Assembly (NCBI RefSeq): GCF_017094525.1
Contig: NZ_CP064788.1
Coordinates: forward strand, 975,030-1,039,029
Direction: 5' to 3'
Length of the DNA: 64,000 nt
Origin: Halapricum desulfuricans
GTDB lineage: Archaea > Halobacteriota > Halobacteria > Halobacteriales > Haloarculaceae
This document shows positions 22,692-35,967 of the stretch, piece after piece; the first letter of the stretch is position 1, and each line of letters begins with the position of its first letter. A program made the position numbers and the translations under genes. Below the pieces are notes generated by a model. That model saw only the letters and a program-made list of their open reading frames with translations, was not told the origin of the DNA and made no database searches.

Positions 22692-22718
22692 GGTTCACAA
22701 TCCGCCCGGGCCCATCAC
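22692..22718 (+). repeat. direct repeat of the tRNA-Val 3' end (26/27 nt identical to 22577-22602); att-site remnant
   Basis: ggttcaCaatccgcccgggcccatcac versus tRNA ggttcaaatccgcccgggcccatcac. Confidence 0.7.
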
Positions 22719-22720
22719 GG

Positions 22721-23350: not shown

Positions 23351-24592
23351 TCAATTGAGTGCGCTGACGGCCACATTCACGACTCGGTTGTCGGGATCGA
23401 TACGGCGGTTTCGCAGGATCTCGTCCGTCCGTTCGTCCTCGAGTTCGGCACAGATTTCGGCGACCGCGAGTCGGATATCAGGATCGTCGGCATCGGCGTG
23501 TCGCCTAAGGAAGTCAAAAACTCGATCCGGAATCCGATCGGACGGCAACTCCGAGCCGATCGAACGGACGGTCTCGGCATCGACATCGTCTGTGTCCACG
23601 TTCGCGAGTGTCGCCTCGACACCTGTCGATTCGGTCTCCGTGTTGGTTCCGTTGTCGGTCACTTCACTATCGGAGGCATCGCCTGTCTCCTGGGCTATCG
23701 GTTCGACCTCGCTTGTCGGACCAGCAGCCCCACTCTCGGCAGAAACAGACGCGTCAGTCTGCTTCGAACTGGATGGAGCCTCAGGCGCCGGGTTCTCTAT
23801 CGAGCCGTCGGTAGTCACCGAATCGGACGGCGAGTGACTGCTCGACGAAGTCTCGGTGCCGCTATCGCCACCAGAGGCACTGTGCTCAGGTCGGATATGG
23901 TCGTCTGAGGCCGTCGAGAGGACAGTGTGTCGTCCCTTCCAGCCGGCACCAAGGATCGATCCGAGGAATGCGAACTCGCCGAGCGAGATGAGAAACAGGA
24001 GCGGCCGATCGAGCCCCGGCGAAGGAGTGACGACGCCAAGCGGGGCAAGGTCGATCAGCGAGAGGATGCGCCCGAAGAGGAAAAGAAAAGTGAGGCCGAA
24101 GGCGATCATCCAGGTGACTTTTCGCTGCGCGCGAGCGATCACCGCGACAACGGCGATCGGTGCTGTCGCGAAGAGAGTTATACGGATAATATCTCCCATC
24201 GACAAATAGATGGTCGCGCTGGTGAGGACGGTCAGCGAAAGGATCGTCGCCACGAAAACGTAGCCAGCGTAGGCCGCGTACAGCGTCCCGAACCGGTCGA
24301 ACTGGGCCTGAGCGTCGGCATCCGGGAGTTGCGTAGCCGTCTCTGAAGGTAACGAGTCAATAGAGTCGGACCCGGGCTCTGGCGAGGACTCCTGCGTGTT
24401 CGAACCCGTCTCGCTGGCGTTCTTGGCGACGTCACTTGCAGTGCTCGTGGCGCTGGCTGCAGCACTCGCGGCTGTCCGCGATCCGCCGATCAGTTTCAGG
24501 ATCGCGGTCTTGATCGTCCGGAACGCGGACAGCACGACGAACAGAGGTGCCAGGGCGCTCTTGATCGGCGCCATGATGAGCCGTCGGAGCAT
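23351..24592 (-). CDS. membrane protein with C-terminal HEAT-like repeats, last gene of the accessory cluster
   Basis: Four TM helices, a Ser/Thr-rich linker and C-terminal ...IRLAVAEICAELEDERTDEIL...NVAVSAL HEAT-like units. Confidence 0.5.
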   Translation of the reverse strand: MLRRLIMAPIKSALAPLFVVLSAFRTIKTAILKLIGGSRTAASAAASATSTASDVAKNASETGSNTQESSPEPGSDSIDSLPSETATQLPDADAQAQFDRFGTLYAAYAGYVFVATILSLTVLTSATIYLSMGDIIRITLFATAPIAVVAVIARAQRKVTWMIAFGLTFLFLFGRILSLIDLAPLGVVTPSPGLDRPLLFLISLGEFAFLGSILGAGWKGRHTVLSTASDDHIRPEHSASGGDSGTETSSSSHSPSDSVTTDGSIENPAPEAPSSSKQTDASVSAESGAAGPTSEVEPIAQETGDASDSEVTDNGTNTETESTGVEATLANVDTDDVDAETVRSIGSELPSDRIPDRVFDFLRRHADADDPDIRLAVAEICAELEDERTDEILRNRRIDPDNRVVNVAVSALN

Positions 24593-24594
24593 GC

Positions 24595-25380
24595 TCAGAC
24601 CACCGCCGGGTACTGGGACTGGTCGACGCCGAGTGTCTCTAGCAAGTCCTGTGCGGGTGGTACGTCATCGGCCGAGGTCGCGGTCGCGACCCGGTCGAGC
24701 GCACCCTCGAGTTCTTCGAGTCGGTCAGTGACTTCCTCGAGATTCAATATCCGCGGCGACAGTGAGAGGTACGTCGATCCTTCGACCTCAATGAGGTCGT
24801 CCATGTCCATCGTCGGCATCCCCTCGTCCGGCAGTTCCAGCCGTCCGAAGCCGGTGACAGTAACGGGAGACGCCAGTTCGATCTCACCTTCGACGACGGC
24901 CTGTGGCAAGACGGTTGACACGTCGTTCAGTTTTGTCTGGCCGTAGGATTTGAACGTGTAGACGAGACTGTTCTGGGCAACCAGTTTCCGCTCTGCGCTG
25001 ACAATACCAATGACGGCGCAATTCTCAAGGATCACGTCGGTACCGACGACGTTGCCGTAGACGATTGCGTCCGTGAGGCGGATTCGGGTTCCCGTCACCG
25101 TTCCGTAGACAGTCGCACCCGACCCAGCGACCTTGCCGTCGGCTCCGACTTCACCTTCGACGCTTCCGTCCTCGAACTCGACACTTTCGGCCCCCATGAC
25201 CGAGCCTTCGACGGTGCCGCCCTTGATTTCGACCGTCTCGCCGTAGACGCTGCCCTGAACTGTCGCTCCCTCGTAGATACGGACTGGCCGTCCGATCTCG
25301 GCTTTGACTGTGGGGACGATCTTGCCGTCATAAGTTTCGCCCTCCTCGACGATGGCTCGAGTCTTTTCGATCGACGCCAT
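24595..25380 (-). CDS. bactofilin-domain (beta-helical polymer-forming) protein
   Basis: Tandem G-x-V-x-G-x-V beta-helix repeats (VQGSVYGETVEIKGGTVEGSVMGAESVEFEDGSVEGEV...) typical of bactofilin/DUF583. Confidence 0.65.
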   Translation of the reverse strand: MASIEKTRAIVEEGETYDGKIVPTVKAEIGRPVRIYEGATVQGSVYGETVEIKGGTVEGSVMGAESVEFEDGSVEGEVGADGKVAGSGATVYGTVTGTRIRLTDAIVYGNVVGTDVILENCAVIGIVSAERKLVAQNSLVYTFKSYGQTKLNDVSTVLPQAVVEGEIELASPVTVTGFGRLELPDEGMPTMDMDDLIEVEGSTYLSLSPRILNLEEVTDRLEELEGALDRVATATSADDVPPAQDLLETLGVDQSQYPAVV

Positions 25381-26307
25381 TCAAGATCCCCCCTCCGTAG
25401 CGACAGTTACCTGATCGTCCACTGCGTCCGCGACCACCGCTTCGTAGGACAGGAGCGGTCGACTGTCGTCGATGTGTGACTCCAGCCCATCGAGGATCTC
25501 CGACCCTTCGATCGTATCCGAACGAGCAGGGGTGAGAGACGTCCGCCCGACGAGTCGTTCCATTCCGGGGAAGGTATCGAGCGACACGTCGACAGGACCG
25601 TCCCTTGACGTAGCCTGGGACGGGGCGACGACGTGCTGTTCGGTCTGGCCGTCCCGTTCGACGGTCACGACGTAGTAGGGGACCTGAACCGTCGTCGGCT
25701 CGGGCTGTGGGGGATCAAACGAGGTCCGCGTCCGCTGGATCCGTTCGACGAGTTCGTGCTGCTGGTCGACGAACTCGTGGATCTCGGAGACGACCTCGCC
25801 GGTCGTGGATTCGATCCGGTCGTGGCGCCGCTGTTCGACCGCTTGGTTTTGGGACTGGAGGGTCTGCCAGGTCGTCGTGACGTGTTCGACGAAGGGTTGC
25901 TCGATTCCTTCCTCGAACTCCTCTTCGTCGATCTCGAAGATGTGAGCACCAAGATCTCGAATCCGTTTCGCGGCCTTCTCGTCGAGTTCCTCGTGTTTTC
26001 GCTCGTATCGCTCCGCGATCCGATCGAGTTGGCGTTCGAGTTCCTCGTGTTCTGTCTCGATACGCTCCTGTTCGGCCGTGATCTGTGGACGGATCTCTCT
26101 GACCTCCGCGACCCGCTCCATCATCTTCATCTCGGCCTGGGCCTGGATCGATTCATAAATCGCATCGATGAGCTCTTCGAAGCCCTCTTTCGCGACTGTG
26201 TGGACCTTTTTGACTTCTTGCCGGACTTCCTTGACAGACTTGAGAATATCACCGACCGTCTGGTGAATCCGCTTGAGGATCGGATGTAGGTCGTCGTTCC
26301 CAGCCAT
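25381..26307 (-). CDS. coiled-coil hypothetical protein
   Basis: Heptad-rich, charged; lower GC than the core genome. Confidence 0.5.
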   Translation of the reverse strand: MAGNDDLHPILKRIHQTVGDILKSVKEVRQEVKKVHTVAKEGFEELIDAIYESIQAQAEMKMMERVAEVREIRPQITAEQERIETEHEELERQLDRIAERYERKHEELDEKAAKRIRDLGAHIFEIDEEEFEEGIEQPFVEHVTTTWQTLQSQNQAVEQRRHDRIESTTGEVVSEIHEFVDQQHELVERIQRTRTSFDPPQPEPTTVQVPYYVVTVERDGQTEQHVVAPSQATSRDGPVDVSLDTFPGMERLVGRTSLTPARSDTIEGSEILDGLESHIDDSRPLLSYEAVVADAVDDQVTVATEGGS

Positions 26308-26310
26308 GGG

Positions 26311-27891
26311 TTAGGCCCCCCTCCGGTCGGGATGATTCGCACTGTTCTGGTTGATCGTGTGCGCGAGCCGTGCCGCGTTTTTGTCCTCCTCGGCCTGTTT
26401 TTTCCTCGCACGCTCGTCCTCTGCTGCCTGCTGGGCGGCGAGGAACTCACGCTGACGCTGGCGTTCGTCCTCGCGTAACATCTCAGCCCGTTGTTCGGCC
26501 TCGGACTCGGCCTGTTCGATACGGTCGTTGACGACCCCTTCGGTTTCTTCGAGGACGCGTTCGGTCTCCTCGTCGATCGTCTCGAATGCCTGGGAGACGT
26601 CTTGCCGGAACTGGTTTATCTTCTGTTCTTGCAGGCGATCGTACTCATCCATCAGGTCGCCGAGGACGTCGACCATCCCCTGTTTGGCCCGTGCCTCCGT
26701 CTGGAGATCCCGGATCTTCGAGCGGATGTCCTTGATGCGTTCTTCCACGGTCCGGATCTCCTCGCGTTGCTGTTCGTACTCGCGTTCTTGCAGTTCGGCT
26801 TTCTGGTCCTCGATAGACTCGTAGATCTCTCGACGCTGGTCGTCCTTCTCGATCCAGAGCTGTTCCCACACGTCAAGGACGATCTCGTCACGGATGCGAT
26901 GTCGAGGGATCCCCGCTGCCGGGTCAAACGACGACCGGCAGGTGTCACAGTACCACTCACCGTCGTCGCGAACTTCGAGTTGTGACTCGATGTCGTCTGT
27001 CATGCAGTCCGGGCAGTAGAAGTGATACGAGACGAGTCCGAACATGTCGCTGGCCCGTCGAATGTGATCGTTGAGCAAGTCCGTCGCCAACTCTTGGAGT
27101 CCGGAGAGGTCGTTGGCGATACGGCGGCTCTGTTCACTCACGTCGAGCAGGACAGATTCTCCATGGTCCTCGTCGGCCATCGACTCGAACTCGTCGAACG
27201 TCCGGACCTGTTCTGTCGCTTCCTCCTGCGACAGCGATACGCCCCCAGCGTCGACAGTGTCGTTCTCGGCCGACGGGACCAACCGAGACAGCGAATCGAT
27301 AGCTGGGTCCCCCTCATCAAGGACCGGGGCGGAAATCTCGTGGGTCTGACTGTCGTTGATCTCCGATCTAATGGTCGAAATGGTCTGGACGAACTCCTTT
27401 TCAACGTCGGTTTCGTCGGTCATCACGACAGGGTACTCACTCATCGAGTCCAGCGTCTGTTTGACCTGCTGTGCGTGTTCCGGGCTATCGAGAAGGCGCA
27501 ACTGAAACTGTTTTGACTCGATCGATTCCGTCGCGTCGAAGACCACCGTCCCGTCGTCGTCGGGGACGAGATGACCCGTCCAGTAGCCCTTCTCGATCGA
27601 CGTGACAGTCGGCTCTGGACTCCGGGAACGAACGTAGGCGCCGCCGCCGACACCGCCAACGATACCGACCCCAGCAAGCGCCAGTCCCGGTCCGGATTGG
27701 TTGGACGCCACCAGGGCGATCCCCGCGATCATCACAACGACGGCCGACACGACGACGAGTTTTAGTCGGGACCACTGCTGCTCGTAGTGATCTTCGAGGT
27801 CGTCGCTGACGGCCTCGTGAACCGCGATCGATTGGGCGTGTCGTTCGTCGACACCGTTCGAATTGACGTACACCACAGAGGGTATGCGCAT
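26311..27891 (-). CDS. membrane-anchored coiled-coil protein with a central zinc ribbon (CPDC...CDTC)
   Basis: TM helix near the N-terminus, a Cys4 ribbon (YHFYCPDC...WYCDTC) and a long E/R/Q-rich coiled coil. Confidence 0.5.
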   Translation of the reverse strand: MRIPSVVYVNSNGVDERHAQSIAVHEAVSDDLEDHYEQQWSRLKLVVVSAVVVMIAGIALVASNQSGPGLALAGVGIVGGVGGGAYVRSRSPEPTVTSIEKGYWTGHLVPDDDGTVVFDATESIESKQFQLRLLDSPEHAQQVKQTLDSMSEYPVVMTDETDVEKEFVQTISTIRSEINDSQTHEISAPVLDEGDPAIDSLSRLVPSAENDTVDAGGVSLSQEEATEQVRTFDEFESMADEDHGESVLLDVSEQSRRIANDLSGLQELATDLLNDHIRRASDMFGLVSYHFYCPDCMTDDIESQLEVRDDGEWYCDTCRSSFDPAAGIPRHRIRDEIVLDVWEQLWIEKDDQRREIYESIEDQKAELQEREYEQQREEIRTVEERIKDIRSKIRDLQTEARAKQGMVDVLGDLMDEYDRLQEQKINQFRQDVSQAFETIDEETERVLEETEGVVNDRIEQAESEAEQRAEMLREDERQRQREFLAAQQAAEDERARKKQAEEDKNAARLAHTINQNSANHPDRRGA

Positions 27892-27982
27892 ATGTAGCAC
27901 ATATCTCGTAGAAGGCATGATACATAGTTCCTACGCCTGGTAACCGCTCCGTCGGGTGGCGTCACGAGACTCGACTCCGCGA

Positions 27983-29260
27983 TCACGAACCGAATAGCTC
28001 GCGTAGCTGCCTGAACAGAGAACCAGCCACGTCCGAGAGGCTGCGTTCGATCTCAGTCGCTTCCGTCGTCTCGCCCGACGAGCGAGTCGCCTCGGAACGA
28101 CGGAGGCTATCCGTTTCAATACCGACACGTTCCCGGTCGAGAGTCCCGGACGCCTCGCCGGCGATACCGGGAGCGTCCGTCCGTCTCTGCCAGGGGAACG
28201 TCCGCATCTCCGTCGACTGGGACTGGTCCCGGATTGTATCGAGGACGCTGCTGTCTTCCGCACGAGCGGCGAAGGAACTCCCCTCGGCGAAATCGCTTCG
28301 AGCGCGATGACGGCTCGTCGATCCGCCGACATCGGTCGAATAAGTACCACCGGAACAGCACAGAAGCGACACCGACTCGTCGAGGACAACCGCACGGAAC
28401 AGCGCAGTCAGATCACGTCGGAAATCGAGCATCGATTCGTATCGCTCGTCCCGTTTTTTCGCAAGGGCCGTTCCGAGGACCCCATCGACCGCTGCTGGAA
28501 GGTCGGGATCGACCTGTGTCGGCGGGTCAGGTGCATCAGTGAGATGGTGGTTCATCACCGCTTTGGCGGTGCCTGTAAACGGTGGATGCCCGGTCAGGAG
28601 CTCGTACACTACTGTCCCGAGCTGGTAGATGTCAGTTCGATCGTCCGGCGGCCCGAGCGTCTCGGGATCGAACTGTTCCGGTGCCGAGTACCGCGGTGAG
28701 AGTCCGTTCACCTCCTGTGAGTGGTGCAACAACAGTTTGGACAGTCCCCAGTCGCTCACCTTCGGAACGTCCCAGGTTCGGTCGTCGGTCGTCCGAAACA
28801 GCACGTTCTCGGGTTTCAGATCGAGATGTGCGACACCGTAGCGGTGGGCGTCCCGGACAGCGTTCGCGACCCAGGCACCGATCCACAGCGCTTCACCAAA
28901 GTCAATCTCACCGGTTCGGTCGGCAAGCGAGCCTCCGTCCATGTACTCCAGGGCGATCCAGGGAACCGGTGTCGAACCCCAGTCGACGATACCGACGATC
29001 CCGTCGTGGCTGTCGATCTGCTCCCACGTTTCTGCCTCCGAGACGACCCGCTGGGCGAGTTCCCGGTCCAGCGTCCCCTGCAGGCGCGGTTGCTTAACTG
29101 CCAGCACGGTGCCGTCCGGAGCACGCATCTTCGTTACGTCGGCTGTTCCTCCGATACCGATCTGCGCCTGCTCTTCCAGCGTCGAGAGATCAACATCGAT
29201 CGCTGGCGCCGCGGGCACGTGCTCTGGGATCGCCGTGTGATCAGTCGGCGATAGATTCAT
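27983..29260 (-). CDS. Hanks-type serine/threonine protein kinase
   Basis: VAIK-like AVK, HLDLKPENVL catalytic loop, SDWGLSK (DFG-equivalent) and APE motifs. Ser/Thr-rich C-terminal tail. Confidence 0.85.
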   Translation of the reverse strand: MNLSPTDHTAIPEHVPAAPAIDVDLSTLEEQAQIGIGGTADVTKMRAPDGTVLAVKQPRLQGTLDRELAQRVVSEAETWEQIDSHDGIVGIVDWGSTPVPWIALEYMDGGSLADRTGEIDFGEALWIGAWVANAVRDAHRYGVAHLDLKPENVLFRTTDDRTWDVPKVSDWGLSKLLLHHSQEVNGLSPRYSAPEQFDPETLGPPDDRTDIYQLGTVVYELLTGHPPFTGTAKAVMNHHLTDAPDPPTQVDPDLPAAVDGVLGTALAKKRDERYESMLDFRRDLTALFRAVVLDESVSLLCCSGGTYSTDVGGSTSRHRARSDFAEGSSFAARAEDSSVLDTIRDQSQSTEMRTFPWQRRTDAPGIAGEASGTLDRERVGIETDSLRRSEATRSSGETTEATEIERSLSDVAGSLFRQLRELFGS

Positions 29261-29469
29261 TGGACCCGACTAGCCGTATCCCGGTTCGGATGGGGTTCCC
29301 GAATCCGAAGCGGATATCTGGTCGCCCCCCTCTTGACGAGCGGGCGTCGGAGGGGGACGCTGTCGAATCCATCGGACGCGGTGTTCGGACGCACAGTTGT
29401 ATGCCAGTCTGGCACGATAAATAGTGTTTCGCTCGTTTCATAAAGTACTGGCCACCGGATAGGAGCCAG

Positions 29470-30240
29470 TCACACATCAGTGAGGTCCTCGCCGCACTCG
29501 GGACAGACCTGCGCTTTCGCGGGGATGGACTCGCCACAGAACAGACAGTACTTGCGAGTTCGTTTGTCTGCCGAACGTTCGGCCTCGCACTTCGGACAGA
29601 CCGGACCGGTATAGGTGATCCCATGAGTCTGACAGCTGTTTTGCGTGTCCGTTTCGCTGACTGTCTCCGGCGCGTCACCGGACGTGGCGCTCTGTGAGTT
29701 ACCACCGACGTTCGACCTGTTGACGACACTATCGTCGACGGTCACGTCGCCACCCCGCGAATCTTCCCCCGCCTGTCCGGGGCCGATGTCCGATCGGTTG
29801 ACGACGCTGTCGTTGACGGTCGTGCTGTTGTCGACCTTATCGCCGGCGACGTAATCGCCGCCGCTGACTTCGATCCGGGCGTCGCGCTCGACGGTCAGGC
29901 GGAGTTGGGTCTGGTAGCCGAGTTCGATCACCGCGTCTCGACGCACGCGCTCGCTGAATCCCTCTTCGATGTCGTGGGAGTCCCCTTCGGTCCGGACGAC
30001 GACGCCGTTAGAGTTTCCCCGGTTACGGACTTCGATCGACTCCGGCTGTGGGACGAACACGACAGGCGGATCGTCGCCTTTCTTCTTGGAGACGGTCACG
30101 TCCGCGATCCCGAGCGGTGCGACGCCGGTTTCGGTCTCGACGACGACTTCTTGATCCCGGGCGGGATCGCGGTAGACCTCCGTGCGTGACTCGATCGGGA
30201 CGGCCCCATTGTCGGTCCTCTCGGGCGAGAGATAGCCCTT
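29470..30240 (-). CDS. double zinc-ribbon protein with internal tandem repeats
   Basis: C-terminal CPKCEAE...CLFCGESIPAKAQVCPECGEDL. Tandem DSVVNRS(D/N)(I/V)G repeats, also visible at the nucleotide level. Start at MKGYLSP. Confidence 0.55.
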   Translation of the reverse strand, partial: KGYLSPERTDNGAVPIESRTEVYRDPARDQEVVVETETGVAPLGIADVTVSKKKGDDPPVVFVPQPESIEVRNRGNSNGVVVRTEGDSHDIEEGFSERVRRDAVIELGYQTQLRLTVERDARIEVSGGDYVAGDKVDNSTTVNDSVVNRSDIGPGQAGEDSRGGDVTVDDSVVNRSNVGGNSQSATSGDAPETVSETDTQNSCQTHGITYTGPVCPKCEAERSADKRTRKYCLFCGESIPAKAQVCPECGEDLTDV

Positions 30241-30346
30241 CATGCCTCTCTGCAAGCGTATTATATCTGGGAACCCATGAAAATGTGGGAATATGTCTGA
30301 TGCATATACATAGACCCAGACAAGCGTTTGGCCGCGACTTCGGGCG

Positions 30347-31117
30347 TCACTCCCGCATGTACGCCTGCTCGACCCGACTTGCGATCCGCTCGACACGCCT
30401 GATCCGATCCTCGGCCAACTCCCCATCCGTACCCAGCGCCTCGAAGGCCTCGATCAATCCCTCGACATCTTCCCGGACGTCCTCGTAGGCGCTATCGTCG
30501 ACGGGATGTTCGGCCATGAACTCCCGAACTTCCTCGGCGCGTTGGAGACACGCTGTCGCGGAGTCGTGGGCAGCTGCTTCCAGATGCTCCGCAAGCGACT
30601 GCCCGAGATAATCGACCGCCTCTTCACCGCCCTCGTCTTCCTCGTCGCTACCTTCATCTCGTTCCATCCGGGTGATATCCGACAGTCGCCGCCGGGCACG
30701 CCTGCGCTCGTCTTCGTAGGTCGCGTTGCCGGCGATCTCCGCCAGCGCCTTCCCCACTTCGCCCCGGAGCGTCTCACCCAGACCGGCATAGATCTCCCGG
30801 AGCGCGTCGATAGCGTCTAGCCGGTCGTCCGAAAACTTCGAATCATCAGCGAGTTCGGTTAGCGTCTCGACGACGACCTCTTCAATCGGGTCTGACTCGC
30901 TTTCGAAACAGGCCAGCAACTCCTCGCGGGCCAACTCGCGCTCGTCGCGGTGAGTCGACTCCAGTGTGATTTCCCGGAACGCCTCAGCGATAGTCCGCTT
31001 GTCCTCCACGGGCGCGTCCGGATACAGCTCGGCCAGCGACTCGATGGCCTCCTCGCGATCCCGCGAATAGGGCGAATCCAGCGCAGTCTCGCGATGCGTG
31101 TCGATGCTGTGCTGCAT
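30347..31117 (-). CDS. acidic alpha-helical repeat (HEAT-like) protein
   Basis: Repeated ...A.ESL.EL.......A..L.E... units. Start at MQHSIDTH (ATG 31115-31117). Confidence 0.45.
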   Translation of the reverse strand: MQHSIDTHRETALDSPYSRDREEAIESLAELYPDAPVEDKRTIAEAFREITLESTHRDERELAREELLACFESESDPIEEVVVETLTELADDSKFSDDRLDAIDALREIYAGLGETLRGEVGKALAEIAGNATYEDERRRARRRLSDITRMERDEGSDEEDEGGEEAVDYLGQSLAEHLEAAAHDSATACLQRAEEVREFMAEHPVDDSAYEDVREDVEGLIEAFEALGTDGELAEDRIRRVERIASRVEQAYMRE

Positions 31118-31118
31118 C

Positions 31119-32882
31119 TCAGTCACCTCCGAGGTCGTGGCCGCAATTGAGGCAAAACTCGTCGTCCGGCTCGACTTCCGCCTCACACTCGGGACAGACG
31201 ACGACCCGATCGGTACCGGAGTCATTACTACCGTCCGAGTCACTACCGCCGCCCTGGACGATCGTGGTGTCGCCGTCGTCGCTGCGCCCCGGATCGGAGA
31301 CGATCACGTTGTCGGAGGTGTCTTCGGCCGCGGCTGTGCCGGTCTCGCTCACGTTGTCCATCGCGGACTCGCTGGTCTCCTGTACCCGGTCCATCGAATC
31401 CGCAGCGATGTCTTTGATCTCCTCGCGGAACTCCTTTTGATCCTCGGCACGCTTGCGCTCGGCCTCGGCGTTGTGGGCCTCCTGGCGGGCCTTCGCGAGT
31501 TCGTCGGAGTCTTTCGCGCCAAGCGCTTCCAGTTGCTCGGGGGTGAGGTCCTCGGCAGCCTCGATCTCGGCGATCTCGGAGACGGCCTCGTCGACACTGT
31601 CCATACTCGCAAGCGTCGAAAGATCGACTTCGTCGCGTGCCCGCAGACGCTCTTTCTCGACTTCGGCCTCGTGTTCCTCGCGGCGCATTTCCAACTCATC
31701 TTCGCGTTCCTCGACGTCGAGACCGTCCATATCCTTCTTTTTCTTGAGGTGCATCAGGTCCTCGATCTCATCGACGTCCTGCTCGTGTTCGAGTTCGCGC
31801 CGTTCGACCTCGCCCTCTTTTTTCGTGGTTTTGATCTCTTCGGTGTGCTCAACGTCCTCGCGTTCGGCCGTGTGCTCGTGGCGGCGCTCCATGTCCGACT
31901 TCTCGTGTCGGTGTTCGATCTCCTGGGTCTCGATCTCGTGGTCGGCGGCCTGCTCGCTGGTCTCCCGGCGGACGCGCTGCTCGTTTTCGTGAACGCTGTC
32001 CGCAGTCTCGCGCTCGCGATCCCGGCGGTCCAGTCGGGCTTCGTCGTCCTTGATATCCTCCTCTTTCTCGCGGATCTCGACGTCCTTGTTCGCCTCGCGG
32101 ATGTGGTCCTGATCGTCCACGAAACTGACAGACAGCAGATCGACCAATCGAAGACCGTACCGCTGGAGGGCCGAGCGACAGGCACGCTCGATATTCTGAG
32201 CGAGTCGCTGTTTGAGTTCGCGATTACCATAGACGTCCTCGCGGTCGTACTCGCGCATCGTCGCTTCCAGTTCGTCCTCGATCGGACCGCCAAGCACCTG
32301 TTGGAAAGTCCGGCTGGTGACGGTCCCGCGGTCGGAAAGCAGACTCGTAAACAGTGTCATCGGATCGTCGACATCGATGGCGAGTTCGAAAGCGACGTCC
32401 AGCGGATACTCGCTGGCGGTCCGAGCACTCGCTTCGAGCGTGACCGTTGTCTCACGGCGCTCGATCAAGATTGCCGCGATGTCGCCGGTCTTCTGCAAGG
32501 ACGTGATCTGCTCACCCAGCGAGTCTAGCGTATGTTTGCCCGGTCCCAGCCGCTCGACGACTTGCCCATCGTGCACGAAAAGCGCCTCGTTGCCGGCCTC
32601 GATCGAGACCTGCTTTCGCCGTGTTAGTTTCCCCCAGAGACTATCGGATCCGAGCTCGCCGGCGTCGGCACGGCGAGCGAACTCGTGCGGTTTCAACCGG
32701 AGTGCGCCGTCCTGAGACGCTGTTGTCGGGCCGAGTTCGGCACGGCAGTTCGGGCAAAAGTTCGCCGCTGCTGGCACGGCTGTCCCGCAGTCGGGGCAAG
32801 TCCGCTCGACGGACGCACCACACTCACTGCAGAACGTCGCCTCGTCAGGCAGCGAGGCCCCGCAGTCGGGGCAGGTCGTCAT
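31119..32882 (-). CDS. SPFH/band-7 (flotillin-like) protein with N- and C-terminal zinc ribbons and a long charged coiled coil
   Basis: N-terminal CPDCG...CSECG...CPDCG...CPNC. SPFH core SIEAGNEALFVHDGQVVERLGPGKH ... YGLRLVDLLSVSF. E/R/K-rich flotillin-like coiled coil. C-terminal CPECEAE...CLNCGH. Confidence 0.65.
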   Translation of the reverse strand: MTTCPDCGASLPDEATFCSECGASVERTCPDCGTAVPAAANFCPNCRAELGPTTASQDGALRLKPHEFARRADAGELGSDSLWGKLTRRKQVSIEAGNEALFVHDGQVVERLGPGKHTLDSLGEQITSLQKTGDIAAILIERRETTVTLEASARTASEYPLDVAFELAIDVDDPMTLFTSLLSDRGTVTSRTFQQVLGGPIEDELEATMREYDREDVYGNRELKQRLAQNIERACRSALQRYGLRLVDLLSVSFVDDQDHIREANKDVEIREKEEDIKDDEARLDRRDRERETADSVHENEQRVRRETSEQAADHEIETQEIEHRHEKSDMERRHEHTAEREDVEHTEEIKTTKKEGEVERRELEHEQDVDEIEDLMHLKKKKDMDGLDVEEREDELEMRREEHEAEVEKERLRARDEVDLSTLASMDSVDEAVSEIAEIEAAEDLTPEQLEALGAKDSDELAKARQEAHNAEAERKRAEDQKEFREEIKDIAADSMDRVQETSESAMDNVSETGTAAAEDTSDNVIVSDPGRSDDGDTTIVQGGGSDSDGSNDSGTDRVVVCPECEAEVEPDDEFCLNCGHDLGGD

Positions 32883-32952
32883 AGTTGCCCCCCATGCAGC
32901 GAGTCAAGACGGTTTGGGTCAGTCGATACGCGCGTAGTGGTCTGCTCGTGTG

Positions 32953-33717
32953 TCATCGTGGATTATCTCCCTGATCGAGGCGCTGCTGTCGGCGTTCGAG
33001 GGCGGTTTCGAGGTCGCGGAGCCGGCGGTGAACCGTCTCGAAGTGTTCTCCGGCGGGGTTAGGAAGAGACTGCTCTAGGGCGTCAAGTTCCTCGTGGAGC
33101 CGGTCGATAGCCGCCACGAGATCCGTATGAATAGAGACAACGGCCGAACGATCGCGAAGAGATACGGCATCAGTAGATATGCCGTCCTGTGGACTCGTTA
33201 TTCGCTGTTCGGCCTGCCGGACGGTTTCGGCCAGCGAGCCGACTCGGGCGGCAGCGTCCCGGTCACCACTCTCGACGAGTCGATCGTGAACGTCGTCAAG
33301 GACTGACCTGGCCGCCGCGAGCTCGGTAGCCAGGTGCGATCGAACCTCGGCGTCGACGCTGGCGATCGAATCGGGCGACGAGTACGGCTCCGAGACGACG
33401 TCCCTGAGCGGTTCCGGAACGTCAACCGCGTCGGGCTGAGGGGGTGTCGACAGATCAGCCGCTGCTGGCGCAGACGCGGCTTCGGAGCTGTGGCGGGCAA
33501 AATGATACGCGATCCCCCAGAGAAACGCCAAAGCGGTGGATATCAGCAACATGCCGGTCACGGACTCGGGCAGCGAGAGGCCGACAGTCGAGAGCACTGA
33601 ATCACCGATCGACCGACTGATCCCCGTCACAAGGGACGTATGAGCACTGATGTATGCGCCGAGGACGATACTTCCGAAAGAAGCGATCGCGTGTGAAGCG
33701 CCTGTCTTGGCCGGCAT
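32953..33717 (-). CDS. membrane protein, possible SPFH partner
   Basis: Three N-terminal TM helices and a helical C-terminal domain. Confidence 0.4.
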   Translation of the reverse strand: MPAKTGASHAIASFGSIVLGAYISAHTSLVTGISRSIGDSVLSTVGLSLPESVTGMLLISTALAFLWGIAYHFARHSSEAASAPAAADLSTPPQPDAVDVPEPLRDVVSEPYSSPDSIASVDAEVRSHLATELAAARSVLDDVHDRLVESGDRDAAARVGSLAETVRQAEQRITSPQDGISTDAVSLRDRSAVVSIHTDLVAAIDRLHEELDALEQSLPNPAGEHFETVHRRLRDLETALERRQQRLDQGDNPR

Positions 33718-33720
33718 ACG

Positions 33721-34929
33721 TCACCTCTCGTATCCCGTCAGTGTCGCCTCGGTCTCCTCGATCGCCCGTTCGAGATGGGATTGAGTGATCGGCTGGACAT
33801 CGTCACTCTCGCGGGCGTCTTCGAGGGCGTATCTGGCGGCATTGGTCGCAACGATCTCCAGATCGCGCGCCGAGTAGCCCGCCGTCTGTCCCTTCGTCGT
33901 TTCCCAGTCGATCTCTTCGTGGAGGACCGGTCGATTCCGGAAGTGAACTCGCAATATCGCTGCGCGTGCCGGTGCGTCAGGAGGGGGGACTTCGATCCGC
34001 TCCTGAAAGCGGCTAACTGCGGCGTCGTCGACTTCCTCGGGGAGGTTCGTCGCGCCGACAACGATCACATCCTCGCCGCGGGTTTCGGTGAGTTCAGTCA
34101 GAAACTGGTTGACCATCTGGCGTTCGCTCTGAGTCTTCTGCGAGCCGCCGCTTCGGGACGGCATCAGGGCGTCGATCTCGTCGACGAAGATCAGACATGG
34201 CTGGTTCGATCGAGCGACCTCGAACAGCTCCGCGACGTTGTCAGCCGCTTCCCCGACCAGTGAGCTGGTGATGTCCGTGGCCCCGATCTCGATGAAATTG
34301 TAGCCGAGCTCTCCGGCCAGGGCGTTCGTAATGTACGTCTTCCCGGTTCCCGGCGGCCCGTACAGGAGGATCGCGTTGACGACGCCGAGATCGTACTCCT
34401 CGTAGAGGTCCGGCCGCTCCAGCGGATCGATCACGGTGTCTCTGAGTGTCTCCTTGAGCTCGCCCATCCCGCCGACGTCCTCGAAAGCCATCTCGGGCGG
34501 CTCTTCGAGAAATCCGCTCGCGTCCGTCTCTGTATCCGGTGTGGCTGACGACACCCCACTCGGCCGGGAGCCGTTGTTTCGACCGTCTGACGACTTCCCG
34601 CTCGCCGACGGAGTACTGTTCGGTGGCGTATCTGACCTCAATGGCCCATCGGGAGCATCTGCACCCGTTCCCGGCTGCTGACCGTCGAGCGAGCCAGCCC
34701 CTTCGAGTCGCTCGGCAGCCGTTCGAAGGTTTTCGGCGAGTTCGTGCCGCTTCGTCGCGAGCCGATCGCTCGACTCGGCGTTGGCGATGTCTTCGAGCGT
34801 CTCCGCACACTTGCGGTAGAGCTTCGCGGCTTTCTCGGCGTCACCGCGTTCCCGGTAGGCGTCGGCCTTCACCCGGTACTGCTCGTAGTTGTCCTTGAGG
34901 ATCTGCTTCTGGGCCTGATCTTCGATCAT
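33721..34929 (-). CDS. MIT-domain AAA+ ATPase (Vps4/CdvC-like)
   Basis: N-terminal MIT-like three-helix region (MIEDQAQKQILKDNYEQYRVKADAYRERGDAEKAAKLYRKCAETLEDIA), a Ser/Pro-rich linker and an AAA domain. Walker A GPPGTGKT, Walker B IFVDEID, SRH ...AVSRFQERIEVPPPD. An alternative start at 35001 would overlap the upstream gene. Confidence 0.75.
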   Translation of the reverse strand: MIEDQAQKQILKDNYEQYRVKADAYRERGDAEKAAKLYRKCAETLEDIANAESSDRLATKRHELAENLRTAAERLEGAGSLDGQQPGTGADAPDGPLRSDTPPNSTPSASGKSSDGRNNGSRPSGVSSATPDTETDASGFLEEPPEMAFEDVGGMGELKETLRDTVIDPLERPDLYEEYDLGVVNAILLYGPPGTGKTYITNALAGELGYNFIEIGATDITSSLVGEAADNVAELFEVARSNQPCLIFVDEIDALMPSRSGGSQKTQSERQMVNQFLTELTETRGEDVIVVGATNLPEEVDDAAVSRFQERIEVPPPDAPARAAILRVHFRNRPVLHEEIDWETTKGQTAGYSARDLEIVATNAARYALEDARESDDVQPITQSHLERAIEETEATLTGYER

Positions 34930-34966
34930 CGCGGGTCCTCCGATCGTTGCGCCGCCCGAATCATGG

Positions 34967-35689
34967 TCAGATCGTGCCGATGTCTTCGTCGAGGTCCTCA
35001 TCGAGGTCGGCGTCGAGACTCACCTCATCGAGGCCCTCTTCAGCTTCAACTTCCTGTTCGACGTCGATCTCTTCCTCGGAGATCTCTCCCGCCGCCATCT
35101 CCTCCATCATCTCCATCTCTTCGCTGTCTTCGGTCCCCATCTCGACGTTCATCACATCGATGTCCAGCCCTTCCTGAACCTCCTGCATGATCTCCATGTC
35201 GAGGTCGAACTCGACCATCTGATTCATCATGTCCTCCTGAACGGACTCGACGTCGACATCACGTTCCCGGATGATCTGTTCGATTTCGGTCGTGTCCCCA
35301 TCGTGCATGTCCTGGAGTTCGCGCGCCCCTTCTACGCTGACGACCGTCCCGAGGACAACGCTGTTTTTCTGGTACTGCTTCTTCTTTAGTTTGTACTTCT
35401 TTTTCGCAATCTGTGCCTTCTTCGCGTAGCTTTCCCGCTCGATTTCGTTCGTCTGTGCTCCCTTCTGGAGCAACTCCTTGTACTCGTTTGCATACTGATT
35501 CATCTCCTGTTCGATCCGCTTGCGCTGCTTGCGGAGTTTGATCTTGTCCCGACGGAGGTCCTCGTCGTTGTAGACTGCCTCATCAAGCAGGGAATTGGCC
35601 GATTCACCGAAGTAATCCTGTACCCAGTTGCGAACTTGCATGGTTGGTGTGTATGTTTGGATTGGCAAATTACTTTGCACGCGATCCAT
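34967..35689 (-). CDS. ESCRT-III/Snf7-like coiled-coil protein with an acidic C-terminal tail
   Basis: Basic N-terminal helices (LRRDKIKLRKQRKRIEQEMNQYANEYKELLQKGAQTNEIERESYAKKAQIAKKKYKLKKKQYQ). Central and C-terminal Met/Glu/Asp-rich helices (MMNQMVEFDLDMEIMQEVQEGLD). This is the Snf7/CHMP charge asymmetry, and the gene sits next to the MIT-AAA ATPase. Confidence 0.55.
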   Translation of the reverse strand: MDRVQSNLPIQTYTPTMQVRNWVQDYFGESANSLLDEAVYNDEDLRRDKIKLRKQRKRIEQEMNQYANEYKELLQKGAQTNEIERESYAKKAQIAKKKYKLKKKQYQKNSVVLGTVVSVEGARELQDMHDGDTTEIEQIIRERDVDVESVQEDMMNQMVEFDLDMEIMQEVQEGLDIDVMNVEMGTEDSEEMEMMEEMAAGEISEEEIDVEQEVEAEEGLDEVSLDADLDEDLDEDIGTI

Positions 35690-35967
35690 CAGATCTCTGG
35701 TTCAAACACCAGCAGCGTCCCGAGCACGCCCAGCACCGAGCCAGCGGCGGCAGCCAGCACCAGCAACTTCATCTCCGAAACGGTGACCGTCAGCATCTCC
35801 TCGCCGAACGTCGCCTCGGCGTAGATGATCGCTGCGCCAACGAGTACGCCGCCGAACGCCCCAGCCGCGACCCGCTGTTCCATCAACTTGTACACGCCCA
35901 ACACGAGGGTCGCAGCGACGAGGAGGTTCAGTACGAACGCGCCTCCGATCCAGAGTGTGATCGACAT
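35689..35967 (-). CDS. small membrane protein (three TM helices), first gene of the accessory cluster
   Basis: 92 aa, hydrophobic; its start codon overlaps the next gene. Confidence 0.45.
   Translation of the reverse strand: MSITLWIGGAFVLNLLVAATLVLGVYKLMEQRVAAGAFGGVLVGAAIIYAEATFGEEMLTVTVSEMKLLVLAAAAGSVLGVLGTLLVFEPEI

Follow-up and report, generated by a model that had tools for sequence, protein, structure and literature searches.

A patchily distributed ESCRT-like locus of Halapricum desulfuricans, probably of the Halo_FHA clade, and its adjoining bactofilin operon

Extent and composition of the locus

In the window (the whole 64,000-nucleotide stretch of the H. desulfuricans genome that was analysed), twelve ORFs, here numbered g1 to g12 from high to low coordinate, occupy positions 23351-35967, all on the minus strand as the initial annotation had it; the NCBI gene calls of H. 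desulfuricans CP064789.1 match for the nine genes shown, with g4 clipped at the edge of the locus. The tight packing that was first described holds for seven of the eleven intergenic gaps (0-47 bp) but not for the other four (g7|g8, 209 bp; g8|g9 and g6|g7, 91 bp each; g4|g5, 70 bp). The drop in base composition had been overstated at 52-58% GC: the cluster measures 0.610, against 0.666 in the left flank and 0.645 in the right, and only the g2 region falls as far as 0.53. GC3 is 0.70-0.76 in the cluster versus 0.80-0.91 in flanking genes, and the block of lower GC3 extends to position 39005, taking in two plus-strand genes (36331-39005) that the original cluster boundary wrongly omitted. The intergenic region between this divergent operon and g1 (35968-36330; GC 0.56-0.57 in the 35-37 kb windows) presumably holds promoters in both directions. 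The Ser/Thr-rich linkers that had been reported can be seen in g3, g8 and g12. The tRNA-Val(TAC) gene (22524-22600) is indeed followed by an exact 19-nt repeat of its 3' end (22699-22717), but a core DUF7321 gene (GC3 0.86) separates it from the cluster. No third copy of the repeat was found at the far end of the cluster, and no evidence was found to support integration at tRNA-Val.

Genes of the ESCRT-like module

The divergent operon pairs an arCOG08177-type gene with an arCOG09748-type gene. The first, p184 (36331-36852, plus strand), encodes an inactivated Cas2-like domain and a TBP/DUF3568-like domain. It has no Pfam match; its family HMM matches HMUK_RS15890 of H. mukohataei (165 bits), labelled arCOG08177 in Table S2 of Makarova et al. 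2024 (mBio, PMC10936438), and its motifs YLFVVDYKSDAERKRVEY and ETFVEYMLSKKKAVLQ..EVYTKKG agree with Fig. S3 of that paper. The second, up718 (36849-39005, plus strand, 718 aa), encodes a helical domain at the N-terminus, then a long coiled coil and a globular domain, with a C-terminus that is likely a winged helix. By tblastn it matches pHmuk01 positions 77707-79725 (E 2e-81, 98% coverage), where the gene HMUK_RS15885, also matched by the family HMM (514 bits), is labelled arCOG09748 in the same table.

On the minus strand, g1 (35689-35967) encodes a small, 92-aa membrane protein in which a hydropathy scan shows about three hydrophobic segments. The next gene, g2 (34967-35641, minus strand, 224 aa), is 100% identical to one NCBI H. 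desulfuricans protein and encodes a long helical hairpin, placed at residues 26-63/66-112 by an AF2 model, with a basic N-terminal half (net charge +7 over residues 1-110) and a very acidic C-terminal half (-45 over residues 111-224). The Snf7 relationship first proposed for it was reached by neither HMM nor fold search: Pfam Snf7 matched neither g2 nor 53 relatives down to 18% identity, the family profiles matched no ESCRT-III chain in the PDB, the fold search returned no specific match, and the labelled arCOG07402 proteins of H. mukohataei likewise lack a Snf7 match. The g2 protein is ESCRT-III-like in its hairpin model, its charge asymmetry, its colinear alignment by hhalign with five eukaryotic ESCRT-III proteins (P 0.0012 over 112 colinear columns, with a probability of only 20%), which beats four coiled-coil controls, and the match of its broad family HMM to HMUK_RS15780 (60 bits), listed as arCOG07402, 'ESCRT-III/Snf7 family' (PMC10936438 Table S2).

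The Vps4-like ATPase g3 (33721-34929, minus strand, 402 aa) starts with an MIT-like domain of three helices (nt 34690-34929), which a Ser/Thr/Gly-rich linker connects to a single AAA cassette. The AAA assignment was confirmed (Pfam E 4.8e-38), and the NCBIfam CdvC model matches at E 1.1e-49, no better than FtsH or Cdc48. The MIT assignment is weak (Pfam E 0.031; N-terminal profile against Sulfolobus Vps4 MIT domains, E 0.0025-0.054). Aligned with yeast Vps4, g3 has Walker A and B motifs and the SRH motif SRFQERIEVPPP, but its pore-loop Trp is replaced by Leu, and the beta-domain and the C-terminal helix are absent. The following gene, g4 (32953-33717, minus strand, 254 aa), encodes a membrane protein of no Pfam family, for which a hydropathy scan gives one or two hydrophobic segments around residues 52-74 and which has a helical coiled-coil-like tail; a full-length homologue was found in Halorhabdus only, and the N-terminal 77 residues resemble small ORFs in related loci L009, L014 and L019.

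In the product of g5 (31119-32882, minus strand), two Zn ribbons are followed by an SPFH domain (nt 32031-32606), a long charged coiled coil and another Zn ribbon at the C-terminus; a hydropathy scan shows no hydrophobic segment. The SPFH call held once the domain was trimmed (Band_7 PF01145, 42.8 bits, above the gathering cut-off), and all seven homologues match; the Zn-ribbon families match at E 1e-14 to 1e-19. The adjacent helical protein g6 (30347-31117, minus strand, 256 aa) had been taken for a HEAT protein, which is not supported (HEAT_2, E 0.1). Instead, its C-terminal ~90 residues form a 'CdvA-like' domain: residues 175-255 match the C-termini of FHA proteins in L002 and L016 by tblastn, and an HMM of the domain matches g6-type genes adjoining SPFH genes, FHA fusions elsewhere, and residues 146-213 of HMUK_RS15770.

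The FHA domain of g7 (29470-30255, minus strand), a decisive fold match at nt 29878-30243, had been missed when the gene was described as a repeat-containing double zinc ribbon. This arCOG13166-type protein, whose family HMM scores 69.5 bits against the labelled pHmuk01 gene, continues with a disordered linker and C-terminal Zn ribbons. In the linker, checked translations contain two copies of a (S/D)(T/V)TVxDSVVNRS motif (29713-29826). In the SPFH-type loci and in L004, a locus that is incompletely typed, the TTVxDSVVNRS motif, which fits FHA ligands, is carried by FHA-Zn-ribbon proteins, beta-helix paralogues and small Zn-ribbon proteins; it was found in neither the fusion-type loci nor the stand-alone bactofilin operons. 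A soluble Hanks-type Ser/Thr kinase, confirmed as such (Pkinase, E 1.1e-29), is encoded by g8 (27983-29260, minus strand, 425 aa), with its HLDLKPEN, SAPE and AVK lysine motifs all present and a disordered Ser/Thr-rich tail. In most of the related loci, too, a kinase gene is located downstream of the FHA gene. The scan of the cluster genes revealed no phosphatase gene, although L007 and pHmuk01 do carry one.

Distribution and linkage

Among 1.84 billion proteins, the ESCRT-III-like family has no more than 94 cluster representatives. A pattern-seeded scan of 185,579 species genomes, in which distant relatives may be missed, found it in 17 other genomes. Some of the related loci are on megaplasmids. 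Spanning about ten genera, 16 of the 17 loci contain up718, g2 and g3; p184 is present upstream of up718 in 8 and g1 in 10. The divergent operon is the most consistently linked partner of the cluster. Only this operon and g1-g2-g3 are near-universal. The twelve-gene order is not conserved, and the single module initially proposed is instead a composite.

Two architectures were distinguished. In all nine loci without an SPFH gene, the FHA protein carries the CdvA-like domain as a fusion. In the seven loci found to have both an SPFH gene and a CdvA-like domain, the domain is encoded separately, by a gene adjoining the SPFH gene; it was not found in L017. Homologues of g5 itself were found in 7 of the 17 related loci. 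Of the 8 SPFH-type loci, 7 have the bactofilin trio (g9-g11) or paralogues of it within 10 kb, against 0 of the 9 fusion-type loci (Fisher p 4e-4, uncorrected for phylogeny).

The bactofilin operon

The first gene of the bactofilin operon, g9 (26311-27891, minus strand, 526 aa), encodes one transmembrane segment by hydropathy scan, CxxC pairs and a C-terminal coiled coil. It is followed by the coiled-coil gene g10 (25381-26307, minus strand, 308 aa) and by g11 (24595-25380, minus strand, 261 aa), a bactofilin-family beta-helix whose score against Pfam Bactofilin (23.3 bits) is below the cut-off of 27.9, but whose identical NCBI protein is named 'bactofilin family protein' and many of whose 102 homologues carry PF04519. 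The last gene, g12 (23351-24592, minus strand, 413 aa), encodes a membrane protein with about five hydrophobic segments by hydropathy scan, a Ser/Thr-rich linker and C-terminal HEAT repeats; the HEAT assignment that failed for g6 stands here (HEAT_2, 32 bits over the C-terminal 90 residues).

In Haloglomus, Halonotius, Halosegnis and Natrinema, g9-g10-g11 homologues (44-69% identical) are arranged in the same operon, with g11 kept behind g9 and g10 and no ESCRT gene within 10 kb. In L018-L021, g9 homologues (44-60% identical) hold the same position and g10 homologues are 44-61% identical. A HEAT gene resembling g12 lies beside the stand-alone operon in two of the four genera; weak g12 homologues are located after the bactofilin gene in L019 and ahead of the operon in L021. 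The genes g9-g12 are a separate haloarchaeal operon, of which the first three genes also stand alone in other genera, and positions 23351-39005 probably comprise two adjoining modules, one of ESCRT type (29470-39005, perhaps with g8) and the bactofilin operon (23351-27891).

Because g9-g11 occur without ESCRT genes in four genera, their adjacency here could be a historical accident, in which an unrelated cytoskeletal operon (g9-g12, possibly with g8) landed beside the ESCRT-like locus in an ancestor common to Halapricum and Halorhabdus. Elsewhere, the canonical trio adjoins such a locus in Halorhabdus only, where the g7-g11 block is on the opposite side, and the Halonotius operon is accompanied by a g8-like kinase; the kinase beside the stand-alone operon of L019 is 44% identical to g8. 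This explanation is possible but on balance doubtful. Both g7 and g8 stay joined to g9-g11, not to g1-g6, in Halapricum and Halorhabdus alike, and five other SPFH-type loci have diverged g10 and g11 paralogues, in order, between ESCRT-linked genes; the beta-helix paralogues end in the TTVxDSVVNRS motif of the g7 linker. An HMM of the divergent ~335-aa paralogues (L007, L013, L014 and L017) matches g10 (E 4e-11) and also finds the L009 copy. Ahead of these genes lie candidate divergent g9 paralogues, by HMM match in L007 and by ORF size and position in L009, L013, L014 and L017.

Relationship to published ESCRT systems

The initial annotation knew of no named counterpart, and this proved wrong. 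Comparative genomics has defined a Halo_FHA clade of archaeal ESCRT-type systems, for which Table S1 lists three proteins of Halapricum desulfuricans, WP_229124351 (arCOG09748), WP_229124354 (Vps4) and WP_229124358 (arCOG13166), and the Vps4 tree list places the H. desulfuricans entry beside Halorhabdus, Halonotius and Natronolimnobius, the last being the Halo_FHA representative (PMC10936438). Judged by sequence, the module at 29470-39005, perhaps with the kinase g8, would belong to this clade, with a probability of about 0.7. The core of the system consists of the arCOG08177 protein, the arCOG09748 winged-helix protein, the small membrane protein, the ESCRT-III-like protein, the MIT-AAA Vps4-like ATPase, the FHA protein and the Hanks kinase; further parts here are the membrane/coiled-coil protein g4, the soluble Zn-ribbon-SPFH protein g5 and g6 with its CdvA-like domain. 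The locus is real, and it adds incrementally to a system already known instead of representing a new kind. These additions are the SPFH-containing sub-architecture, the recurrent bactofilin-like paralogue modules within such loci and the shared TTVxDSVVNRS motif, none of which was found described in PMC10936438.

Possible functions

An auxiliary machine for cytokinesis or cell shape, in which the ESCRT-III-like filament, Vps4-like ATPase and bactofilin would act at the division site or poles, like the Cdv system of Crenarchaeota or the halofilins of Haloferax, is unlikely. The three components of the Cdv machine do have counterparts here in the CdvA-like domain, ESCRT-III-like protein and Vps4-like ATPase, shape transitions in Haloferax are governed by the bactofilin relatives HalA and HalB (PMC11459167), and deletion of ydjG or ydjH in Bacillus causes shape defects under stress (PMC8581546). 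However, the CdvA similarity is weak (HHpred probability 53, PMC10936438 Table S3) and the PRC-barrel of CdvA is absent; the locus cannot be a general component of division, since it is rare (17 of 185,579 species genomes in the pattern-seeded scan, which may miss distant relatives) and absent from model haloarchaea according to the tables of PMC10936438; and the complex euryarchaeal ESCRT systems, found in organisms with a complete FtsZ machinery, are argued there to be non-divisional.

Another function entertained in the initial annotation, conflict with viruses or plasmids, would have the kinase and FHA protein sense infection, and the AAA ATPase and membrane proteins execute abortive infection or membrane disruption. 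Defence systems do contain kinase, FHA and AAA modules. The patchy accessory distribution, GC3 below that of the flanks, plasmid-borne relatives and PADLOC matches of g3 to IetA (E 3.5e-33) and of g8 to the PD-T4-6 kinase (E 1.9e-44) would suit such a system, but it is unlikely: these matches are generic and at domain level, with housekeeping AAA models as good or better (FtsH 172 bits and CdvC 169, against IetA 115); the other cluster proteins have no meaningful PADLOC match (g9 and g10 have low-scoring coiled-coil matches only); no effector, such as a nuclease, protease, TIR or Sir2, was recognised; the genes directly around the cluster are core genes rather than a defence island; and no relative was found on viral contigs.

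The initial annotation was probably right in taking this for an accessory ESCRT-like membrane-remodelling locus, one that is patchily distributed; its interpretation as a whole is partly supported. For an ESCRT-type system of the Halo_FHA clade, we infer each step of the mechanism as follows. The ESCRT-III-like g2 would polymerise on the membrane via its basic N-terminal hairpin, and a Vps4-like hexamer of g3 would grip the acidic tail of the polymer by its MIT domain and use ATP for remodelling or disassembly, resulting in membrane deformation, scission or repair. The kinase g8 may phosphorylate the threonines of T-x-x-D motifs, among them those of the g7 linker, and the FHA domain may dock on the phosphothreonines, which would make assembly or cargo recruitment dependent on phosphorylation. 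The CdvA-like, winged-helix and arCOG08177 proteins could serve as adaptors in the manner of ESCRT-I and ESCRT-II. The bactofilin module, whose diverged paralogues bear the same TTVxD motif in five related loci, may supply a curvature-sensing platform. For a mechanism of this kind, PspA-YdjGHI offers a precedent (PMC8581546). In the cell, the system would probably serve vesicle formation, the sorting of phosphorylated proteins, as has been proposed (PMC10936438), or membrane maintenance, rather than cytokinesis.

Identity of the locus with the Halo_FHA system

The twelve minus-strand open reading frames at 23351-35967, numbered from the high-coordinate end (g1, 35689-35967) down to g12 (23351-24592), are real genes, and NCBI gene calls for H. 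desulfuricans (CP064789.1) are concordant for the nine genes shown there, g4 being cut at the edge of that locus. Start codons were corrected for g2, the ESCRT-III-like gene (to Met17, 224 aa), for g3, the gene of the Vps4-like ATPase (to "MIEDQ", 402 aa), and for g6, which encodes a CdvA-like protein (to "MQHSID", 256 aa).

Makarova, Tobiasson, Wolf, Koonin et al. (mBio 2024, PMC10936438) defined ESCRT clades in Euryarchaeota, including Halo_FHA, which consists of Vps4, ESCRT-III and arCOG13166 (an FHA plus a CdvA-like domain), with arCOG09748 (with a C-terminal winged helix), arCOG08177 (inactivated Cas2 and TBP domains), Ser/Thr kinases and phosphatases as frequent companions. Table S1 of that paper lists WP_229124351 (arCOG09748), WP_229124354 (Vps4) and WP_229124358 (arCOG13166) for Halapricum desulfuricans; in its Vps4 tree list, WP_229124354 stands between Salinigranum and Halorhabdus in a run that includes Natronolimnobius, the clade representative, and relatives of g2 from J07HX64 and A07HN63 are likewise entered under arCOG07402. 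From the consecutive accession numbering we infer that WP_229124354 is g3, the only MIT-AAA gene of the locus.

The gene families of the locus were compared with labelled genes of H. mukohataei plasmid pHmuk01. The larger gene of the two-gene operon divergent from g1, up718 (36849-39005, plus strand), matches HMUK_RS15885, labelled arCOG09748 in Table S2 (PMC10936438), at E 2e-81 with 98% coverage. Family HMMs score 514 bits for arCOG09748 (up718) and 165 bits for arCOG08177 (p184, the first gene of the operon, 36331-36852, plus strand), 69.5 bits (FHA) and 25 bits (CdvA-like domain) against labelled arCOG13166, and, for the g2 family, 60 and 41 bits against the arCOG07402 genes HMUK_RS15780 and RS15835. 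The product of p184 also bears the sequence signatures of Fig. S3 in PMC10936438. An arCOG13166-type FHA protein is therefore linked to Vps4 and ESCRT-III genes at this locus, and the optional genes arCOG09748, arCOG08177 and a Ser/Thr kinase are all present. Judged by these sequence relationships, the core of the locus is the published Halo_FHA ESCRT-type system, already listed for this species; the arCOG labels and the Table S1 entries thus contradict the initial annotation, according to which the gene combination had no named counterpart.

The Halapricum locus shares with the published system the Vps4-like ATPase, arCOG07402 upstream of it, arCOG13166, arCOG09748, arCOG08177 and the Ser/Thr kinase, but differs from it in that FHA is fused to zinc ribbons while the CdvA-like domain is a separate gene, in the addition of a zinc-ribbon-SPFH gene and a bactofilin operon, and in having no PP2C phosphatase. 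In the text of PMC10936438, SPFH appears only in the Meth_adaptin clade and bactofilin is never mentioned. No phosphatase was found among the Halapricum cluster genes scanned; a PP2C phosphatase is encoded in the Salinarchaeum locus (L007, 6019-6813, minus strand; Pfam E 8.5e-16), and a PP2C gene is annotated in the pHmuk01 locus (L023, 26756-27475, plus strand). The CdvA-like residues 146-189 of the H. mukohataei FHA protein (L023, 8349-9005, plus strand) match the VPS28 C-terminus at E 0.14, far below significance, a faint match that echoes the idea of Vps28-C-like helical bundles in PMC10936438.

Extent, composition and flanks

Seven of the eleven intergenic gaps measure 0-47 bp, as had been described; the other four, at 70-209 bp, are neither tiny nor overlapping. 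The GC content of the cluster is 0.610, against 0.666 in the left flank and 0.645 in the right, and its third-position GC is 0.70-0.76, against 0.80-0.91 in flanking genes; the compositional shift is therefore real, though about half the size first estimated. The block of lower third-position GC extends to 39005 and so takes in the two plus-strand genes divergent from g1. The cluster as first described is real, but it was mis-delimited and partly mis-annotated. It is flanked by core genes, on the left DUF7321, tRNA-Val, DUF192 and an Lrp-type regulator, and on the right DUF7319, a halocyanin-like protein and cytochrome b.

In the region of tRNA-Val(TAC) (22524-22719), an exact 19-nt copy of the tRNA 3' end lies about 100 bp downstream (26 nt if one insertion is allowed), both copies falling within 22583-22717. 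No third copy was found in the window, neither copy lies beyond the cluster, and no integrase domain appeared in the Pfam results for the window genes scanned. Integration of the cluster at tRNA-Val was rejected, there being no border repeats and no integrase, because the repeat copies adjoin each other and a core gene separates them from the cluster. The duplication was probably left behind by an integration or excision long ago, independently of the ESCRT-like island.

Elsewhere in the window, a second low-GC block (50200-57500, GC 0.55-0.61) just before SecY (57525-59000, minus strand) looks like a small mobile or defence islet, with ORFs for a CcbP-like calcium-binding protein (52577-52927), an AbiEii-like toxin (53796-54623) and a DDE transposase (54891-56063), all on the plus strand, and three further ORFs with no Pfam match. 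Two 1-kb windows, 1-1000 and 11001-12000, have GC contents of 0.58-0.59 in a region otherwise at 0.63-0.71.

The ESCRT-III-like protein and its ATPase

The assignment of g2 to Snf7 was not borne out by HMM search: PF03357 matched neither g2, nor trimmed g2, nor any of 54 family representatives. Three labelled arCOG07402 proteins of H. mukohataei likewise gave no Snf7 HMM match, and two g2 family profiles (A1 and A6) had zero matches to ESCRT-III chains in the PDB at E up to 10. The family is small: clustering at 90% identity gives 64 clusters, and a search of 1.84 billion proteins yielded 94 representatives. Profile A1 was aligned by hhalign with five eukaryotic ESCRT-III sequences, namely Snf7 (in agreement with its PDB entry), a Shrub fragment taken from a PDB alignment, and three CHMP sequences that may be approximate; the probability was 20% and P 0.0012, over 112 colinear columns spanning alpha1-alpha4 (g2 28-160 against Snf7 25-148), whereas four coiled-coil controls reached P 0.006-0.19 over only 13-39 columns. 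Residues 1-110 of g2 carry a net charge of +7 and residues 111-224 a net charge of -45, a split that fits an ESCRT-III-type protein, as does its invariant position upstream of the ATPase gene: g2 ends 37 bp before g3, and the order g2-then-g3 is kept in 17 of 17 loci. We conclude that g2 probably acts as an ESCRT-III-like protein and is a candidate member of the superfamily.

The AAA part of the MIT-AAA assignment of g3 was confirmed, with a single cassette (PF00004, E 4.8e-38) containing the Walker A motif GPPGTGKT, the Walker B motif FVDEID and the second region of homology SRFQERIEVPPP, which is of the RF-x-RI-x-P-P type in an alignment with yeast Vps4 (reference sequence identical to PDB 5uie). 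The MIT part fell below the Pfam threshold (E 0.031; 14.8 bits, cut-off 30). A profile of 13 family N-termini matches the MIT domains of Sulfolobus Vps4/CdvC (2v6y, E 0.0025; 2w2u, 0.0065; 4lcb, 0.054), and TPR proteins outrank MIT domains in the search with the N-terminal family profile. By HMM score, g3 is not separable from FtsH or Cdc48 (NCBIfam E-values of 1.1e-49 for CdvC and 2.3e-50 for both FtsH and Cdc48); against the PDB it scored 158 bits with Vps4, for one domain, and about 281 bits with p97, the sum of two domains. Pore loop 1 (residues 221-227) reads SSLVGEA in all 15 family members, as against SKWMGES in yeast Vps4, so that Trp206 of the yeast protein is replaced by Leu in 15 of 15. 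This tryptophan grips substrate in Vps4. In the same alignment the g3 family has no counterpart of the C-terminal helix of Vps4 or of its beta-domain, which is the Vta1 site.

Scaffold and signalling domains

A Pfam scan of the full-length proteins confirmed the AAA domain of g3, the kinase of g8 (Pkinase, E 1e-29) and the zinc ribbons of g5 and g7, and returned nothing above threshold for Snf7, MIT, SPFH or HEAT. Some of these domains were recovered from trimmed sequences. The SPFH domain proposed for g5 (31119-32882, minus strand) was missed altogether in the full-length protein, and scored 42.8 bits with Band_7 (PF01145; cut-off 23.6) once trimmed to residues 61-295, the alignment spanning profile positions 2-169 of 176; Band_7 was above the cut-off in all seven homologues. 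The charged coiled coil and zinc ribbons of g5 seem to suppress the match, which is a caution for automated annotation of such multi-domain proteins. HEAT repeats were likewise upheld for g12 (HEAT_2, 32 bits on the last 90 residues) and not for g6, whose N-terminus reaches only E 0.1.

An FHA-domain profile gave no FHA match in Pfam or the PDB; the FHA beta-sandwich fold of g7 was recognised from a structure model predicted from homologue sequences, whose best structural matches include GarA and FhaA. Candidate phosphothreonine binders in g7 are R25, S52 and N74/N79, which show a conservation of 90% or more across 47 homologues and follow one another as expected. The bactofilin assignment of g11 stood in part: its own score against PF04519 is below the cut-off (23.3 bits, cut-off 27.9), but an identical protein is named "bactofilin family protein" by NCBI, and many of 102 g11 homologues, at 50-71% identity, carry PF04519 in precomputed annotation.

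Two architectures among related loci

The g2 alignment was searched against one genome per species, and the loci found were then mapped by tblastn and HMMs. There were 17 loci, in Halorhabdus, Haloglomus, Halonotius (six), Salinarchaeum, Halosimplex, Salarchaeum, Halobaculum, Haloplanus and several MAGs, of which all 17 have g2 and g3, 16 have arCOG09748, ten have g1 and eight have arCOG08177. The order of the twelve genes is not conserved, even the closest relative, Halorhabdus, having its g7-g11 block beyond the divergent operon. No relative of g2 was found on viral contigs or, by tblastn, on plasmids. Relatives of arCOG09748 (32-33% identity, 97-98% coverage) are present on megaplasmids of 220-420 kb, namely pHmuk01 and those of Halarchaeum sp. 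CBA1220 and Halomicrobium sp. LC1Hm, which fits a mobile, accessory distribution. Halonotius aquaticus has two ESCRT-like loci on different contigs (L010 and L011), in addition to a stand-alone bactofilin operon.

Nine loci are of a fusion type, in which an FHA-CdvA-like fusion gene lies directly 3' of the ATPase gene and no SPFH gene is present, and eight, the window counted, are of an SPFH type. In seven of these eight the CdvA-like domain is encoded by a separate g6-type gene adjoining the SPFH gene; it was not found in the remaining one (L017). Wherever FHA was found in SPFH-type loci (the window, L001, L007 and L014), it is fused to zinc ribbons. This shifting of the CdvA-like domain between genes points to a functional link of FHA, the CdvA-like domain and SPFH. 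A rough neighbour-joining tree of the ATPases places most SPFH-type loci together, with two exceptions. The SPFH-type sub-architecture was not found in the text or the available table parts of PMC10936438.

The bactofilin-like module

A g9-g10-g11 operon of 44-69% identity occurs in Haloglomus litoreum, Halonotius aquaticus, Halosegnis marinus and Natrinema salinisoli, and no ESCRT-like gene lies within 10 kb of any of these four stand-alone operons. A g12-like HEAT gene stands beside the operon in Halonotius and Natrinema, and a g8-like kinase gene adjoins it in Halonotius. Thus, g9-g12 constitute a separate module that can occur without ESCRT-like genes. The Halonotius operon (L019) comprises kinase, HEAT protein, g9, g10, bactofilin and g12 genes, and is situated between A-type ATP synthase genes, near an IS remnant.

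Five SPFH-type loci (L007, L009, L013, L014 and L017) contain a paralogue set between the ESCRT-linked genes. Its members are a g9-like gene of about 520-650 aa, backed by an HMM match in L007 and elsewhere by its length and location; a g10 paralogue of about 335 aa, whose HMM matches g10 of the window at E 4e-11; a beta-helix paralogue of about 390 aa, which the g11 HMM picks up (E 1e-6 to 1e-8) in every locus but L007, where a paralogue HMM recognised it; and a small zinc-ribbon protein. Pfam does not recognise the 390-aa beta-helix paralogues as bactofilins. The trio or its paralogues are found within 10 kb in seven of eight SPFH-type loci and in none of nine fusion-type loci (Fisher p 4e-4, with no correction for phylogeny; Halonotius is the named source of six fusion-type loci), and the presence of the bactofilin operon beside the ESCRT-like locus is probably not pure accident. 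This recurrent module, too, was not found in the text or the available table parts of PMC10936438.

A candidate docking motif

The repeat that had been noticed in g7 exists as two copies of (S/D)(T/V)TVxDSVVNRS (29791-29826 and 29713-29748, minus strand). Across loci the motif takes the form (S/R)TT(V/I)xDSV(V/L)NRS, often following DxSTTVx heptads, and besides g7 it is carried by the small zinc-ribbon proteins, by the beta-helix paralogues, which end in it, and by the FHA-zinc-ribbon proteins of L007 and L014. It was found in the window and in L007, L009, L013, L014, L017 and L004, being limited to SPFH-type loci apart from one ORF of L004, which is incompletely typed. The text and available table parts of PMC10936438 contained no such candidate FHA docking motif.

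The motif threonine has Asp at +3 (T-x-x-D), the preference of FHA domains such as Rad53 FHA1, and GarA has a threonine-rich self-ligand. It is therefore proposed, by inference from these sequence features, that the linked kinase may phosphorylate the motif and that the FHA domain may bind it when phosphorylated.

Proposed mechanism and alternatives

On the best-supported reading, the locus encodes an accessory machine of the ESCRT type that remodels membranes and is controlled by the kinase and the FHA protein. More tentatively, with roughly one chance in three of being right, Halo_FHA systems may comprise two architectures, the fusion type and one in which an FHA-zinc-ribbon protein, a separate CdvA-like protein, SPFH and a bactofilin-like module are coupled via the phosphorylated motif. 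In the SPFH type, the FHA-CdvA-like fusion would be split into an FHA-zinc-ribbon protein and a helical CdvA-like protein, and a soluble zinc-ribbon-SPFH scaffold would be added. Also recruited would be a three-part module (a membrane coiled-coil protein, another coiled-coil protein and a bactofilin-like beta-helix), either as paralogues inside the locus or as the canonical operon adjoining it. Phosphorylated TTVxDSVVNRS would tether the motif-bearing parts to the FHA protein, so that a bactofilin-type cytoskeleton and an SPFH microdomain might be coupled, under phosphorylation control, to an ESCRT-III/Vps4-type machine.

As the output of such a machine, Makarova et al. proposed not division but the formation of vesicles or the sorting of phosphoproteins (PMC10936438). 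The pspA-ydjGHI system of Bacillus subtilis, in which an ESCRT-III-fold protein is brought to the membrane by two membrane proteins together with a soluble SPFH protein (PMC8581546), resembles the locus in that the SPFH protein g5 has no membrane-spanning part and is encoded along with two membrane proteins, g1 and g4; the resemblance is meant as a functional analogy, not as a claim of membership or of homology between g2 and PspA, and the Bacillus system has no Vps4-like ATPase, kinase or FHA protein. On the strength of this parallel, membrane maintenance is as good a candidate for the function.

A defence role for the ESCRT-like locus is conceivable: PADLOC returned a generic AAA ATPase (IetA, TRIP13), a generic kinase (PD-T4-6) and low-scoring coiled-coil matches, but no partner such as IetS and no complete named system, and viral contigs yielded no relatives of g2. 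A named PADLOC defence system was accordingly rejected, the matches being to generic domains only. Given how sparsely the locus is distributed, a general role in division or cell shape is unlikely.

Comparison with other systems

The Cdv system of Crenarchaeota is an essential division machine. The locus resembles it in that the ESCRT-III-like gene adjoins the gene of an AAA ATPase with a putative MIT domain, one domain shows limited resemblance to the helical hairpin of CdvA, and the N-terminal profile of g3 matches Sulfolobus CdvC MIT domains; it differs in that g2 has neither a Pfam Snf7 signal nor a winged-helix extension, the PRC barrel of CdvA is missing, and its distribution is accessory. 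Eukaryotic ESCRT-III and Vps4 share with g2 and g3, respectively, a basic N-terminal hairpin (predicted in g2) with an acidic tail, and the succession of MIT (weak in g3), linker and single AAA cassette with an RF-x-RI-x-P-P second region of homology; the differences are the Leu in place of the pore-loop Trp and the missing beta-domain and C-terminal helix in the g3 family, and, for g2, sequence similarity to Snf7/CHMP that reaches only the hhalign P of 0.0012.

The Meth_adaptin system of Methanosalsum zhilinae also has an SPFH protein (WP_013898576) with coiled coil and zinc ribbon, encoded beside ESCRT-III and Vps4, but the adaptin-appendage, GOLD and ProX components were not found at the Halapricum locus (PMC10936438). 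Although g11 is probably, like the halofilins, a beta-helix protein of the bactofilin family, it has neither the two-subdomain helical-hairpin layout of HalA nor the membrane domain of HalB (PMC11459167), and orthology of g11 with HalA or HalB is unsupported by this architecture. The words operon, neighborhood and synteny are absent from the main text of PMC11459167, so the operon context of g9, g10 and g11 is apparently not covered there. Mycobacterial GarA and FhaA offer a further analogy, a Ser/Thr kinase gene beside an FHA protein bearing threonine-rich motifs, although the output proposed here would be membrane remodelling rather than metabolic enzymes or cell-wall synthesis.

To our knowledge, comparative genomics is the only source of information on archaeal ESCRT-type systems other than those of the Cdv and Asgard lineages, and a literature search found no later experimental work on the haloarchaeal ones. 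Downgraded from a cluster with no known counterpart, the locus is a published system with incremental additions, a compact and well-delimited example that raises no new question. The additions, namely the SPFH sub-architecture, the bactofilin-like module and the docking motif, are incremental and rest on about eight loci. Haloarchaea divide with FtsZ, and the candidate roles of an ESCRT-III/Vps4-like machine in them are vesicles, protein sorting, membrane repair and defence; what the locus adds to this question in testable form is a soluble SPFH partner, in parallel with PspA-YdjI, a candidate docking motif with its kinase, and a recurrent link to a bactofilin-like module.
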